Shown here piece after piece: positions 15,058 through 45,688 of a stretch of DNA of 62,860 nucleotides. Every line of letters starts with the position of its first letter. Position 1 is the first letter of the stretch. The notes beneath the pieces were generated by a model. That model worked only from the letters and a program-made list of their open reading frames with translations. It was not told where the DNA came from and did not search any database. The translations under genes and the position numbers were made by a program. The DNA comes from Promethearchaeota archaeon (GTDB taxonomy: Archaea > Asgardarchaeota > Lokiarchaeia > Sigyniarchaeales > SOKP01), in the NCBI GenBank assembly GCA_011364975.1, contig RDOE01000009.1, forward strand, positions 1-62,860. Direction: 5' to 3'.

Positions 15058-16386
15058 TTAATACGCCTTTCCTTTTTTCTTTGCTTCCATATAATTGCTA
15101 ATTATTTGATTCATCATATCATCAGGTCCGACCGTTATAAGATTGACTCCTAAATTTTTTATACCTTGCTTAACTATTAAAATATGCTCCATCATTTCCT
15201 CACTTATCGCTTCAGCAAGTGCTTTATCAGTTGTAGATAAATCTACTTCATGTATTTCAAACCAAGGACTGAAAGGATTTATTATTATGATAGTATGGTT
15301 GAAAGGTATTAATTTCCGAATAGCTTGACCAAATTCATTCGGATTTACTTCTAAATCGGTAATTAGAAAAACTAAACTTCGTTTCTGAAATCGGCGATTC
15401 AGATAATCCATAGCTTCTACAATCCTACATTTTCCTTGTGGTTTAATTTTAGCTACAAAGTCTAAGACTTGATAAAAATGATCCTCGCCTCTTCCTGGTT
15501 TTAGAAATTGATAATTTTTTCTATCGGAGAAGGTAAACACTCCTACATTATCTCTTCGTGTTAATGCCACTTTAGTTAGTAGCATACAAGCTCTGATCGC
15601 GTATTCAAACTTAGTATTTTCTATTGCTCCTCCTGCCATAGAATTTGAGGAGTCAACTACTATCATTACGGTAACATCTCTCTCACTTTCAAATTCTTTT
15701 ACTATTAATTTTTGGGTACGAGCACTGGCTTTCCAATCTATTAATCGAAATTGATCACCAAATACATATTTTCTCATTCCATAGAATTCTGAGCCTAACC
15801 CTTTTTGTTTTGATCTTTGAAGTCCGTAATTTAAGTTTAATGAACGTTTCGAACCTAAAATCTCTATTCTTTTAATATCCTCATAAGGAGGATAGATTAA
15901 AATATCTGAAACGCTATCTGGTACAATTCTTTCCACGGAGTTAAATCCAAGTCTATCTTTTACTGTAACAGAAAGAGGTCCTAGAGGATATTCACCTCTT
16001 ACTTTTGGTTCAAGAACATAACTAAACTTAATTATGCCCTTAGGTCCAATTCTGGTGGATATAAAATTTTCTCCCAGTACTAAACGGAAAAGTTGTGGAT
16101 TATAATAATCTCTTATTTCGAGGAATTCAAAGCTATTTTTCCCAGTATTTTCGACTATCACTTTAATGTGCACAAAATCATCCTTAAACACTTTCTCTTT
16201 TTCAAGTTCTCTCTTAACTTTCAACTCTTCAATATTCATCTGCCAATAGAAAAGTGGTAAACTAATTACTGTGCTGAAAATCAATAGCACAGCGAAGTAA
16301 ATCAAAAAGTAATTAACAAAGGCAAAACCTGCTGTGAGAAAAAATACTGAAAATAGTATTAAAGCTCTCCCTTTTCCTCCTAACAT
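15058..16386 (-). CDS. DUF58 / VWA-like MoxR partner protein
   Basis: GSEFYGMRKYVFGD..RLIDWKASAR..LIVKEFE, DSSNSM MIDAS-like motif and an N-terminal TM. Confidence 0.9.
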   Translation of the reverse strand: MLGGKGRALILFSVFFLTAGFAFVNYFLIYFAVLLIFSTVISLPLFYWQMNIEELKVKRELEKEKVFKDDFVHIKVIVENTGKNSFEFLEIRDYYNPQLFRLVLGENFISTRIGPKGIIKFSYVLEPKVRGEYPLGPLSVTVKDRLGFNSVERIVPDSVSDILIYPPYEDIKRIEILGSKRSLNLNYGLQRSKQKGLGSEFYGMRKYVFGDQFRLIDWKASARTQKLIVKEFESERDVTVMIVVDSSNSMAGGAIENTKFEYAIRACMLLTKVALTRRDNVGVFTFSDRKNYQFLKPGRGEDHFYQVLDFVAKIKPQGKCRIVEAMDYLNRRFQKRSLVFLITDLEVNPNEFGQAIRKLIPFNHTIIIINPFSPWFEIHEVDLSTTDKALAEAISEEMMEHILIVKQGIKNLGVNLITVGPDDMMNQIISNYMEAKKKGKAY

Positions 16387-40842: not shown

Positions 40843-42036
40843 TTAAATCCAATCTCCTGTAGTCAATTTTTCTGGAAGATATTTATCAGTTAAAAATTCA
40901 AAGCCAAATGTCGAGAGTGCTTGAATTTCTGCTTTTATTTTTAGATTTAAAGCTAATTTCAAATCATTTTCCCATTCCTTATTATTTTTTACAAAATCTT
41001 CGCTTAATAATTCTTTTGTTCTTTTTATATCTGTCTGATTCATGGGAATTCTGCAATCATTAGGGATTTTATATTTCTCTAAATCACGGGTCAATACTCC
41101 AAGAAGTTTAATATTGGGAGTCGCTAGAAAGGGTGATTCATAGCTTAATCTTTTAGATCCTCTAAGATAAACTGAGTGAATATAATGACCATAAGGATCA
41201 CTATCTACTAAAGTGAATACGGGAAGATTTAATTCCTTACTTAATTTTCTTAAAAACATCCTAGTAGCAATATCTGCGGCACCTTTAGCTGTTAAAATAA
41301 TACATGGATAATTTTTCCAGAAACGTGCTTCAGATAACCTTATCATAGCAGCGTCTTTTTCTAAAACTAAAATAAACTCGGCATCTGATTCCAAGATTTC
41401 AATATTATCTAACATTGGGCTAATAGTCCAACCTCCACTGCCAAGACCTTCTAAATCAATAATATCATTTCTATCTCTAATCCGGAGTCTTCCTATACAT
41501 GACCCTTTGGCGGAAGCAACAATATGTGTCGAATTTCTTGTAGTGTAAAGCATTGTAGCAACATCTTCAATGCTTTTATCACTATTTTTTTGATCTCCAA
41601 ATAATTGAACGGAAGAATAATAGATTTCTCTTTTAGTGGCGTGAAGATCTTTTATTAATAACTCATTTACCTTTTCAAGAACTTTCATTAATCGCGTAAT
41701 ATCTGCTACACTTGCTAAAGAGTGAAATTGTTTTTCCATAATCTGTTTTCCAAGAAGTAAAAGATCATTCTCTTCATCCCATATTATATTAGTACTAGTC
41801 TTCGAAGGTAATTGAATTGAAGGTCTTCCTGATTCAGAAATCATCTCTATAATTGAATCAACCAATTGATGAATTCTTTCTAATATCTTTTTTCTGGAAA
41901 GATCATCAATTTTTACCGTATTTTCAGGTAATTTAACTTGTTTTTTTATCTCATCTTGTCCTTTTTTTAAATAATCTTGAAATAACTTTTTTGTTTCTTT
42001 TAAATCCCATTCTTTTTTATTGCTCTTGCTTGCCAT
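40843..42036 (-). CDS. top6A: DNA topoisomerase VI subunit A
   Basis: TKREIYY catalytic Tyr, VLEKDA, DSDPYG TOPRIM motif and KAEIQAL. Confidence 0.96.
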   Translation of the reverse strand: MASKSNKKEWDLKETKKLFQDYLKKGQDEIKKQVKLPENTVKIDDLSRKKILERIHQLVDSIIEMISESGRPSIQLPSKTSTNIIWDEENDLLLLGKQIMEKQFHSLASVADITRLMKVLEKVNELLIKDLHATKREIYYSSVQLFGDQKNSDKSIEDVATMLYTTRNSTHIVASAKGSCIGRLRIRDRNDIIDLEGLGSGGWTISPMLDNIEILESDAEFILVLEKDAAMIRLSEARFWKNYPCIILTAKGAADIATRMFLRKLSKELNLPVFTLVDSDPYGHYIHSVYLRGSKRLSYESPFLATPNIKLLGVLTRDLEKYKIPNDCRIPMNQTDIKRTKELLSEDFVKNNKEWENDLKLALNLKIKAEIQALSTFGFEFLTDKYLPEKLTTGDWI

Positions 42037-42046
42037 TTACATCCCC

Positions 42047-45000
42047 TTAAGCTAAACTCCAATGTTTTTTACCCTTTTTAGTTTCAACAAATATCAAACC
42101 TTTTCGTTCTAAATCTTTTAATTTAAGTTGAAGGAAACGAGCATCCATCATATCCTTTATCTTCATCTTAAATATTAAGGACGTTATAGGTTCTCCTTCA
42201 TTTGTTAACACATCTAATATTTTCTCTGTGGTAATAAGTGGTGTTTCTTCTTGAATAGAACTAGGTTTAACTAATGGTTTAACAACCTGAGTTTTAACCA
42301 TTTTTTCTTGCTTTATTGGTTCTTCCTTAATAATCGGAATTTGCGTTAGTACTATTTCCTTTTTCTCTTCAATTCCTTCTTCTTTTTCCTTTGAAAAGAA
42401 TTCCTGAATATTTTTAATTATTTGTGTTTTACTTGCTGATTTTGTAATAACTATGTTGTGATCTGAACAATATTCTCTAAGTTCTTTAACAGTCCAATTT
42501 TTTAATGTTTTTATGGATAGAAATTCTTCTTTATAATGATCCGTTACTTCAATTTCTTGCACGGTCTCAATAGGAGGCTCCTCAATTTCAATTCCTTTTT
42601 CCCATTCAATAGTAACTTCTTGAGGTTCTTCTTTGGCAATAGTTTCCCTTTCAAGTCTTTTAGGAGGAGTAGGTGTAAGTTCTATCTTTTTTGGTAAGGT
42701 TTTCTTTCCAATTGCTTGTTTCATCATTTCTTCTAATTCTTCACGAGAAAATTTCTCTTTATATTTTTCATTAGTGGAAGTAGCAATAGTGTAGATACTA
42801 TTTATAAAAGAAGGTATATATTTTTCTATTAAACTCGCCCTCTTTTCACTTTTTTTAAAAGTGGCTTTACGATTTAAATAAACTCGTAAACGCCTTCCAA
42901 TCGCTTCAAGACAATATTTTATTTCTTTTACTAGGTCTTCATCATCAGCTAACGCGTTTTTAGATTGAGATTTAAACATAAGATGTACATAGGGACCAGA
43001 AACATTTACTATTAACTTTATAGGTCCTTTAGGAAGGTTATTATCATATATCTCTAATTTATAGTTCTTCCAATTAACGCTTTGTACTGCTTTAGTTATA
43101 GCGCAGTCTGCTGAATCCCTTAATTTTGGTGTACGATTTACAAATCTAGACAGGACATCTCTGGAGCGTTTGGGAGTCTCAAGCTTCTTAGGGTCATTAC
43201 AATAGGCTAAACCAGCTTCCACTACATACGCTAAACCCTTTCCACTAGTTGGAGGTCTCGTTTCCGCAGAGACAAAATCATCATCCTTGGTATAATTTTG
43301 AGAAAAAAATTCTAAAACCTCTTGATAACTGTCCTTTTCGACATTTTGGAGGGAAATAAGGTTATTTTCAACAATTCTAATAGCCTGCTCTGTATCAACG
43401 CTTAGATCATTGATATCTATGCTTGCAAGGATTCTTGAATTGTAGTTTTTAAGTTCATCAATAGTAATCGGGATTTTATCTATTTTTTCTAATTTATTTT
43501 TTTGATCCTCCTTTATTATAGCTTTTTTTTTCTCTTCTTGTAGGATTTCGGAAGTTTTTATTAGAACTTCTAAAGGTTCTCCAAAATCATCAATATTCTC
43601 CGATACTTTTAGACCTATTTCTTTAATTAAGGTACTTTCTAGAACAGAATCTCCAACTGGAATAGCTGTATCGGTAGGCGGCGACATATATTTCATTGAT
43701 TTGAATGCATGAAATAGTGAATTAAATTGTTCATTTGTCAATTCAGAAGGTTTTGATTTAGACATTAAAATTTCGTTAATAAGACTTTCAAAATCCTCTC
43801 TATTTTTTAACTTCTTTATTTCAAGAATACCCTCATTAACATTTTCAAAAACTTTTGCTAATTCACTCTTAATTTTTTCTTTTTGTTGAGAAATTTTTTC
43901 TAATTTGCTTAATAGATTATCAATTTCTTTTTCAATTTTTTTAATATCTTTTTTTATTTCTGATTTTTCTATTCTATTATTATGTTTTTTAATTTCATCA
44001 TTAATCTTTTCTTTATCTCTATTTAATTGATTATATCTATCTATAAGCACCCAATATTTGTCCTTTAATTCGTTAGATTGCACTGTATAAATTATTAGTT
44101 TGTCTCTAGGTCTTTCTGATCGACCGAATACACGTTTTTCAAATCTAAGCAAAAATATTTCATCATTTTTTTTATTTGATTTTGAAATAAAGCTGTTCCC
44201 AAGATTTAAAAGATTAAGTTTGTCTTGCAAATCTCTTTCAGCATGATTTATTATATCTTTTGCAGTTTTAGAACTAATTCTTACAAAATTTTCTTGAAGA
44301 AAAGCCGATACAGTCAAATTTTCAGATTTAGCCAATAAATCTTGTAAATCTCCAATATTGGTTGATGTAGGGTGCGGTTTTGCATATTTAGGTTCTCTTG
44401 GAAACGAAGAAACTAATCTTCTGTAGATCCATTCATCTCCATAAGGATCTATAAAAATAACAGTTATATGAGGATTCATTAAAGCTGTTTCTTTAATATA
44501 AGTATCTACGTATCCTCTAACATATTTGACATTCAGGTAATTTAATTTTATATACGTACCATGTAAAAAAGGGCTATCAACTTCTGTCGGATGTATTAAA
44601 TATTTCTTTTCATTTTTGGAAGTTGTAAAAAATTCAGATACGGTAGCATAAATACTTTCAAGATTTTTCGATACCGCAACAATAGGCTTTCCAGTTGTGT
44701 TTTGAGCATCACTAAATGCACTTGGTGCCCCAAATCCTTGACTACCTCTAGTCTGTTTTAACTCAATACTTTTTGAAGATGCTAAATATTTACCAAATTT
44801 TCTTAAGTCTACTTTAGACATTCCGATTCCATTATCAAAAATTTCAAATGTGTAGCTCATTACGTTTTTCTGGGATAGCTCTGATGTAAGAAATGATGCA
44901 GCTTCGTATTCTCTTAGACGAATAATTACAAGTGGCTCGATGTCTATAATTGATTCAACGGGCTTTATAATTTCATTCATATCAAGGATGATACGTTTAA

Positions 45001-45452
45001 CTTCTTCCTCAACTTCTAACTCGGATTTATCAATTATTTCTCCCGAACCTTCTTCTTTATCTTGAAAAGAATCTATAGATATCTCTATTGACTCTGCAGG
45101 AGCTAGACCTATTTCTTTCATCAATGTTAATTTGGCTTCATTGTTTAATGGTTTAGCAATTTCATCTGCTTTAGCTTCTTGAAGAATTGAAAGATTTTCT
45201 AATGTAAGATCTTGATCTAAAGAAAATAAAGCTTTAGATTCCTCCTTTTGGAGTTCATTCCAGTGGTAAGTTTCAATAGCGTCCAATGCGTTATCTAAGA
45301 ATTCGGCTATATATTGTTTGCACAGGTTTAGGATGCCTATAGAACCTTGAATGCTTCCAGTAACCGAATTCAAACCCAACTAGTTGTGTTCTTTTACGCA
45401 TGAACTGAGCTATTGTTCCTTGTTTAATCCTGCCTTCTTCCTCTGATGAAAT
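42047..45452 (-). CDS. top6B: DNA topoisomerase VI subunit B, predicted spliced: join(45452..45349, 45317..42047), about 1124 aa
   Basis: Exon 2 has EFLDNALDA, DNGIGM, QTRGSQGFG and RFVNRTP. Exon 1, in another frame, reads ISSEEEGRIKQGTIAQFMRKRTQLVGFEFGYWKH, matching the Top6B N-terminal 'aeFf.rn..l.GF' segment. Confidence 0.9.
45318..45348 (-). other. Putative 31-nt BHB/BHL-type archaeal mRNA intron in top6B
   Basis: mRNA GCAU-UC^A-AGGUU..UAGG-CAU-CCUA-AACCU-GUGC-AA^A: 4-bp central helix, 3-nt bulge and intron hairpin. Removal restores the frame. Confidence 0.8.
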
Positions 45453-45688
45453 TTTTTACACCTGCCTTATTAATATTTTAATTATAAAATTCACATAATT
45501 AGATGAATTATAATCTATATATACATAAACCTATTTTTACCACATAAGACCTATTAAATATTCTAATGTCTAATAAATTAATCAATTTTTAAAATTGTAT
45601 TTGTTCAGTCATTTTGAAAAGAAATTGATTTACTATTTAAATCTTTTCTTCATTTGTAAAAATTTATAAAGAACGAGTGGATTTAAGT

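Follow-up and report, generated by a model that had tools for sequence, protein, structure and literature searches.

The question raised by this locus is how an archaeon could obtain a complete Top6B protein from a gene whose two conserved parts are written in different reading frames. The stretch of DNA that we analyzed (the window) covers positions 1 to 62,860 of contig RDOE01000009.1 from a Promethearchaeota archaeon of the Lokiarchaeia type of Asgard archaea (GCA_011364975.1), a metagenome bin of 200 contigs with an estimated completeness of 99% and contamination of 6%. The gene in question, top6B, lies on the minus strand, to which all top6B coordinates refer, and its N-terminal part (45452-45349) and its remainder (45317-42047) stand in different frames with 31 nt (45348-45318) between them. 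We consider it very probable that this insert is an archaeal-type pre-mRNA intron: the anatomy of the DNA, the recurrence of the insert among relatives, its fold, the frame arithmetic and the presence of the enzyme genes are established, and from them we infer splicing itself, that is, cleavage, ligation and the enzymes performing them. Judging from the sequences of this and related genomes, it is most likely that this lineage uses its tRNA-splicing enzymes to splice messenger RNAs as well.

The interrupted top6B gene and its orthologues

Read from 45452, the first frame encodes 53 residues, which are conserved as far as ...VGFEFGYWKH, continue with 19 unrelated residues and end at a stop codon (45293-45291). 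The frame one base out of register carries ...CKQYIAEFLDNALDA and belongs to a 1110-codon open reading frame (ORF) ending at 42047, and the spacer from the His codon to the Gln codon measures 34 nt. An earlier note on this DNA, made from the sequence alone, had described the two frames, the stop after 53 codons and the 34-nt spacer, all of which translation reproduces. The genome motif scan sets the end of exon 1 at 45349 and the start of exon 2 at 45317. By translation, exon 1 (45349..45452) comprises 34 codons plus two bases and holds the conserved N-terminal segment up to ...GFEFGYWKH. The predicted intron (45318..45348), placed by the fold, the motif scan and the spacing in orthologues, begins with base 3 of the 5' bulge and ends with base 2 of the 3' bulge. 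Exon 2 (42047..45317) opens with the single base that would finish a Ser codon and continues with QYIAEFLDNALDA... (the GHKL N-box), the transducer domain and the stop, running, in a genome rich in AT, for 1,089 uninterrupted codons. The Topo VI-B transducer domain of its product was identified with Pfam Topo-VIb_trans (E 9.7e-28); the match to Pfam HATPase_c_3 is weak and below the cut-off, and the N-box motif is conserved across orthologues.

The insert is also present in DNA assembled by others. The DNA runs in which the locus occurs (X1-X20) are sediment, estuary, mangrove and soil metagenomes, two of which, X20 and X13, are public runs of two studies other than that of the source genome. 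A 7,179-nt contig of X20 spans the insert without gaps and shows a single substitution, located inside the insert, which in the RNA sense is a C-to-U change at 45342, in the unpaired internal bulge of the intron hairpin. A 493-nt contig of X13 likewise spans the insert without gaps. The same run holds a 151-nt contig of a relative in which exon 2 follows directly on exon 1 with one codon at the junction, and which by its sequence is an allele without the intron, from a different species in that sample. Contigs of run X9 reach only the edges of the stretch.

To place the insert among its orthologues, we gathered top6B genes from relatives together with 80 named records, and kept 88 distinct alleles after removing 25 copies identical to others, one unrelated pattern hit (L035) and two loci, L030 and L116, whose sequence starts within the gene. 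Exactly one codon separates H and Q in 82 of the 88 distinct alleles, which agrees with the one-codon spacing that the earlier note had given for homologues and leaves 31 nt in excess in the source genome. The remaining six carry an insert at this codon, of 31 nt in the source genome and in L071, an additional and more distant allele (~72% identical), and of 29 nt in G046, G022, G007 and G024. The insert sequences differ among the six alleles and no length is a multiple of three; the in-frame insertion of about 11 residues in orthologues, which according to the earlier note would have pointed to a simple 1-nt error, was not seen. Of the 42 genomes of the genus, 5 match a pattern that spans the insert; the pattern had one further, unrelated match. 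In all six alleles exon 1 is conserved and the gene is otherwise intact, and the frame is restored by cutting each bulge behind its second base, which gives H-S-Q-Y or H-T-Q-Y, the residues found in intronless alleles.

On the Top6B protein tree, the six insert alleles occupy at least four separate places and require at least 4-5 changes, the gene tree being unrooted. A single clade of the six was rejected with a p-AU of 2.9e-90, for a group defined after the tree had been seen and on a gene tree in which gain and loss are indistinguishable.

RNA fold of the insert and pairing of the flanking codons

The unconstrained minimum-free-energy fold of 45370-45300 reaches -18.5 kcal/mol, compared with -10.6 +/- 2.6 in shuffled sequences (z = -3.0), and only 1 of 200 shuffles folds as well. 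From the outside inwards, the fold consists of a 10-bp exon-exon helix, a 2-bp step, a 3x3 internal loop (GAA/AAA), the helix GCAU/GUGC, the bulge UCA and a two-part intron hairpin. The 5' strand of the central 4-bp helix, GCAU, lies in exon 1 (45351..45354) and is paired in all six alleles; its 3' strand, GUGC, lies in the intron (45320..45323), with one pair alternating between GC and GU across alleles. The bulge UCA at the 5' splice site (45348..45350), with its predicted cut between 45349 and 45348, is flanked by helices on both sides, namely the central helix and the 5-bp intron stem. At the 3' splice site, AAA (45317..45319) stands opposite GAA (45355-45357), with the predicted cut between 45318 and 45317. 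The intron hairpin (45324..45347) has two stems separated by a 3-nt internal bulge, a 5-bp one (AGGUU/AACCU) adjoining the central helix and a 4-bp apical one (UAGG/CCUA). Every element named in the earlier note is therefore found in the minimum-free-energy fold; the AAA that it had set on the 3' strand is not a clean bulge, and the 10-bp exon-exon helix had gone unmentioned. As modelled, the top6B motif is a relaxed, non-canonical bulge-helix-bulge (BHB), with a textbook bulge at its 5' site and a relaxed 3' site, because the 3' AAA sits in a 3x3 internal loop. Such a relaxed site fits the forms described, in the available text of PMC5829648, for enzymes with an L1 loop.

The combination of a 4-bp central helix and a 4-bp inner helix, given position and length, occurs about 3 times in 10,000 (68,415 of 220,578,466 position-length pairs per strand of the source genome). 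In the alignment of the six alleles, 93.9% of the cells of the 22 proposed pairs are paired; sliding the partner strand lowers this share to 17-40%. Pairing is complete (100% of cells) in the central helix and amounts to 86% in the inner stem, with G007 the weakest, and two of the proposed pairs change compensatorily on both sides.

The codons on either side of the insert form what we call the clamp helix. Across orthologues, the layout is such that the 12 nt upstream (E-F-G-Y) are complementary to the 12 nt downstream (x-A-E-F). In the source genome, the 5' arm (45360..45371), seen in the fold, covers the E-F-G-Y codons and is paired in register at 11 of 12 positions; the 3' arm (45299..45310), seen in the fold and in the flank duplex, covers the I-A-E-F codons. 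The six alleles with an insert have 11-12 of the 12 clamp positions paired and duplex energies of -11.7 to -14.1 kcal/mol, whereas the flank duplex of the 82 intronless alleles ranges from -0.1 to -8.9 kcal/mol; ranked by this energy, the insert alleles are the top 6 of 88. The clamp differences between alleles are synonymous codon choices, of which the simplest reading would be that alleles with the insert are under selection for RNA pairing.

Several observations weigh against an intron of this type. A canonical 3-nt bulge at the 3' site was not found in the fold, where AAA and GAA lie opposite each other in a loop bounded by 2 bp, beyond which the clamp helix follows, and in G007 the helix next to the 5' bulge has two mismatches. 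Covariation in top6B alone is weak, with 116-259 of 500 shuffles reaching the values observed in the six sequences; of the alignment of Asgard top6B genes to which the earlier note had looked for support, the presence of the insert in 6 of 88 alleles and the two compensatory pairs stand, and the shuffle controls are not exceeded. For the association between clamp and intron, independent phylogenetic contrasts agree in direction in 4 of 4 cases, with a sign-test p of 0.125, a significance that four contrasts cannot improve upon, and with a duplex-energy threshold picked after the data had been seen. The E-F-G and A-E-F codons are mutually complementary, so that part of the clamp pairing follows from the amino acids, and it is because of this complementarity that intronless alleles keep a weaker clamp. 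Lastly, 20 of the 23 listed sequencing runs hold the stretch, and none of them is on record as RNA.

Inserts in other genes, splicing enzymes and features of the locus

We hold it probable that tRNA-type introns exist as a population in the core protein genes of this Asgard genus, with four sites in three genes and a probable fifth in a POR gamma-like gene. The four sites are that of top6B, the P-loop Lys codon of the gene for elongation factor 1-alpha (aEF-1alpha), and two in the gene for ribosomal protein uL11, one in the source genome and the other in relatives only. Each of them is occupied in some species and cleanly empty in close relatives. The genome was scanned for relaxed BHB motifs whose excision joins two open frames, and cases were picked by exon-exon duplex-energy ranking, reading of the flanking peptides and a Pfam check, a procedure that favours well-known conserved motifs and is not a census. 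A bulk excess is absent, with 1,338 candidates in the source genome vs a chance expectation of ~1,070 (a looser scan gave 3,250); the top two candidates by exon-exon duplex energy are the uL11 gene and top6B.

The 28-nt insert of uL11 lies on the plus strand of contig C106 at 16072-16099 (L120, 573-600), with Pfam Ribosomal_L11_N positions 1-25 before it and 27-58 after it, the model being short of exactly one position at the junction. This first uL11 insert (28-29 nt) occurs in 12 of the 29 parsed loci of the genus. Its central and inner helices are 88.6% paired across 12 sequences, a value reached by none of 500 shuffles; three pairs change on both sides, and compensatory changes are present in the intron stem. 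A second insert, of 32, 37 or 38 nt, is found in 7 of the 28-29 parsed loci (L131, L132, L136, L137, L138, L141 and L143), one conserved block upstream of the first and just before the A-S-G-G-P-P codons, at a site that is empty in the source genome. Its central helix reads UGGG/CCCA or AGGG/CCCU, a compensatory change at a Gly third position. The two uL11 inserts occur in all combinations across the loci of the genus.

In aEF-1alpha, the insert measures 32 nt and interrupts the P-loop Lys codon (C113, 30766-30797, plus strand; L154, 367-398), with Pfam GTP_EFTU positions 1-15 before and 17-184 after, and here too the model is short of exactly one position. It folds as a near-canonical bulge-helix-bulge with a 9-bp exon-exon extension (z = -2.85). 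Inserts of 31, 32 or 33 nt are present at this site in 5 of 30 loci of the genus, and the 33-nt form reads with an in-frame stop. The inserts of aEF-1alpha and uL11 must be removed in some way, because neither gene can be a pseudogene.

Two further candidates are less clear. A 63-nt insert in a POR gamma-like gene for a 2-oxoacid:ferredoxin oxidoreductase (C165, 7709-7771, plus strand; L185, 310-372) has a GUAC/GUAC central helix and is probably a site of the BHB type; the downstream piece matches Pfam POR from position 11, the upstream piece, ending in ...GGQGVIRAVQ, is too short to score, and the fold is not significant (z = -0.45). A 46-nt candidate (C147, 17488-17533, plus strand; L121, 489-534) stands before the AMP-binding domain of an acyl-CoA-synthetase-like gene, where the downstream piece matches Pfam from position 3 and the upstream piece gives no hit, homology across the junction not being shown. 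The cbf5 gene of the source genome is uninterrupted.

The enzymes that such splicing would require are encoded in the source genome. We found two ORFs of the tRNA_int_endo family and one RtcB (E 3e-166). The 200-aa tRNA_int_endo ORF (contig C126), in which the catalytic residues Tyr, His and Lys are retained, aligns end-to-end with the alpha subunit of A. pernix (3p1z_B, E 1.6e-35), with a Lys opposite K44 of the Crenarchaea-specific loop (CSL); in the 205-aa ORF (contig C191), Phe and Asp stand in place of the Tyr and His, as would be expected of a structural beta subunit. In the available text of PMC5829648, K44 is a conserved residue of this loop, and the loop itself, which is conserved in Asgard archaea, enables the enzyme to cleave relaxed motifs. 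By their sequences, the two ORFs would make up a heterotetramer-type splicing endonuclease (EndA) of two subunits, a catalytic alpha with the broad-specificity loop and a structural beta. In this genome, estimated to be 99% complete, aragorn reported only 22 tRNA genes and called an intron in 13 of them; many tRNA genes are probably interrupted at positions that aragorn cannot model.

The archaeal cut rule, between bulge residues 2 and 3, has been shown experimentally for cbf5 and tRNA (PMC2738675, in its available text). Applied to top6B of the source genome, it removes 45348-45318 and gives H-S-Q-Y in frame, as the earlier note had derived; it works in all six alleles and also accounts for the aEF-1alpha and uL11 inserts of the source genome. 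The route through EndA and RtcB put forward in that note gains support from this shared rule and from the two-subunit EndA and RtcB genes, splicing itself being the predicted step. In the proposed mechanism, the codons flanking the insert would pair in the pre-mRNA into an 11-bp exon-exon helix and so present the relaxed bulge-helix-bulge. The heterotetramer-type EndA, with its Crenarchaea-type specificity loop on alpha and its structural beta, would cut after the second base of each bulge, and RtcB would join the exons, creating the Ser codon in ...WKH-S-QY... and bringing the N-terminal segment into frame with the GHKL ATPase domain. Unspliced RNA would yield the 53-residue peptide only.

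Other features of the top6B locus were recorded alongside. The likely start codon is ATT (45452-45450), with an in-frame stop upstream (45458-45456) and no ATG, GTG or TTG between that stop and the conserved N-terminus. This ATT aligns with the ATG (e.g. L002, L010, L016) or GTG (L003, L017) of other alleles, and an aligned ATT is also found in L005, L007-L009, L011-L014, L018-L024 and many other loci. A Shine-Dalgarno-like GGTG (45459..45462, minus strand) is located 6 nt upstream of the ATT and also precedes the aligned start in several orthologues. The transducer domain occupies residues 678-825 of the exon-2 product, with long Lys/Glu-rich stretches before it and a C-terminal extension of ~260 residues after it. 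Orthologue open frames of 1,040-1,150 codons have the same size as that of the source genome, whose Top6B is presumably about twice the usual length. Only 10 nt downstream of top6B begins top6A (40843..42036, minus strand; 397 codons), with a Pfam TP6A_N match at 41524-41700. With one top6B match in the genome and top6A directly downstream, the description of top6B as essential in the earlier note is plausible. Weighing on this description is a GyrA/ParC-type fragment (Pfam DNA_topoisoIV positions 1-162) on the minus strand of contig C186 (5-490), at a contig edge in a bin with 6% contamination. Near-identical top6B loci belonging to one genus (L040, L042, L056, L071, L084 and others) are deposited under the labels of different phyla (Odin-, Hod-, Hermod- and Thorarchaeota), and one as a Nanopelagicaceae bacterium, which look like inconsistencies of submission labelling.

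Alternative explanations and relation to known systems

Among the alternatives, translational recoding, in which ribosomes would cross the insert by frameshifting or by a bypass like that of phage T4 gene 60, survives best and is still highly improbable. The insert is indeed short, contains a hairpin and lies inside a coding region. However, the 31- and 29-nt inserts, which share one site, would call for opposite shifts, the 29-nt alleles carry an in-frame UGA seven codons into the insert, and no matched take-off and landing codons were seen flanking the insert on reading the sequences. The conserved features are, moreover, those of an endonuclease substrate, and one cut rule accommodates all three insert lengths of aEF-1alpha (31, 32 and 33 nt), which no single recoding event does.

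An inactivated top6B, decaying after a small insertion such as the footprint of a mobile element, would explain the broken frame, and the GyrA-like fragment in the bin suggests that another type II topoisomerase might compensate for the loss. Against this explanation, which we regard as very unlikely, exon 2 has remained open over 1,089 codons despite the AT-rich genome and exon 1 is conserved; the six interrupted alleles are otherwise intact, with synonymous sites near the insert tuned to pair; the genome holds a single top6B match; and like inserts occur in aEF-1alpha and uL11, genes that cannot be pseudogenes. We give just as little credence to a split gene, in which the 53-residue peptide and an N-terminally truncated Top6B (e.g. 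from the TTG at 45379) would be made separately and assemble. The downstream frame does contain a 1110-codon ORF with a TTG start, but the break interrupts a continuous stretch of conserved sequence one codon ahead of the N-box, the 21 codons before the Q in that frame are intron plus out-of-frame exon and are unconserved, and the equivalent breaks fall inside the P-loop of aEF-1alpha and inside the compact domain of uL11.

There is a similarly slight chance that the insert is removed from the RNA by something other than EndA and RtcB, be it self-splicing or another nuclease-ligase pair. Nevertheless, size excludes self-splicing, as 31 nt is far below that of group I and II ribozymes, whose core takes hundreds of nucleotides, no relevant Rfam family was found in 45150-45550 (the sole hit, psRNA6, scored 13.8 bits vs a gathering score of 60), and the geometry is that of an EndA substrate. 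An assembly or sequencing artefact, in the form of a spurious insertion or frameshift in one metagenome-assembled genome, has almost no probability left, even for a 200-contig bin with 6% contamination, because the gap-free contigs of two other studies, five genomes of the genus and L071 carry the insert at the same codon, with differing sequences and lengths.

The absence of the predicted intron from close relatives argues that it is dispensable. That its splicing might gate the expression of Topo VI, as the earlier note had suggested, is speculative, and the clean absence in sister species, as seen in their sequences, speaks against a required regulatory role. If the prediction is true, these introns form a second set, independent of that in cbf5, and the tRNA-splicing machinery acts on mRNAs well outside Crenarchaeota, some of them from among the most highly expressed genes, and spliceosome-independent mRNA splicing would be routine, with frequent intron gain and loss, in close archaeal relatives of eukaryotes. 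The series of intron-plus and intron-minus alleles with a co-varying clamp offers natural material on EndA recognition without a tRNA body and on intron gain and loss. There would also be a practical consequence, in that gene callers would truncate or split aEF-1alpha, uL11 and Top6B in these metagenome-assembled genomes, and such miscalled marker genes would affect phylogenies and completeness estimates of a lineage used for studies of eukaryote origin.

In searchable papers, the only archaeal gene with documented pre-mRNA splicing is cbf5 of Crenarchaeota. Introns in cbf5 pre-mRNA of Desulfurococcales and Sulfolobales measure 16-44 bp, and both spliced cDNA and in vitro cleavage have been published (PMC2738675, in its available text). 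The 2018 EndA paper cites only cbf5 papers for pre-mRNA (PMC5829648, in its available text), and a preprint of October 2026 on Asgard tRNA introns, which describes a two-subunit EndA with an L1 loop, contains the word mRNA 0 times in its available text (bioRxiv 10.64898/2026.10.13.758758). The earlier note knew of no mRNA intron in top6B or in Asgard archaea, and we likewise met with no BHB intron described for top6B, aEF-1alpha or uL11, or for any mRNA of Asgard archaea, in the full-text literature searched, with subscription journals mostly outside it and supplements unread. The type of element and its mechanism were already known; new, within the reach of these searches, are the genes, the phylum, the multiplicity per genome and the co-varying clamp.

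Among eukaryotes, spliceosome-independent mRNA splicing is known from HAC1/XBP1, in which a short, frame-changing intron is cut out by the endonuclease Ire1 and the exons are ligated by tRNA ligase or RtcB, as a regulated stress switch. The top6B intron resembles it in being a short, frame-changing mRNA intron that would be removed without a spliceosome and with joining of the tRNA ligase/RtcB kind; it differs in that the predicted nuclease is the tRNA-splicing endonuclease, not Ire1, and that regulation is shown for HAC1/XBP1 and not for top6B.

The closest relative is the crenarchaeal cbf5 intron, as far as the available text on it goes. Both are short inserts in a protein gene (29-31 nt here) with an unconventional bulge-helix-bulge and a cut, predicted in our case, between the second and third bulge residues; in both the host EndA is hetero-oligomeric, the presence of the intron is lineage-specific and a highly conserved codon is interrupted. 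The present case differs in its gene, in its occurrence in Asgard rather than TACK archaea, in affecting at least three genes in one genome, and in the long exon-exon clamp helix that co-varies with intron presence in top6B; unlike the cbf5 intron, with its published cDNA and cleavage, the top6B intron is predicted here from DNA.

Finally, the archaeal tRNA introns with relaxed bulge-helix-bulge or bulge-helix-loop (BHB/BHL) motifs, cut by an (alpha-beta)2 EndA with the L1/CSL loop (PMC5829648, in its available text), share with top6B the predicted enzyme, the cut geometry and the combination of one well-formed bulge with one relaxed site. Unlike those introns, the predicted substrate here is an mRNA without a tRNA body, in which a helix between the codons of the two exons takes the place of the tRNA stem.

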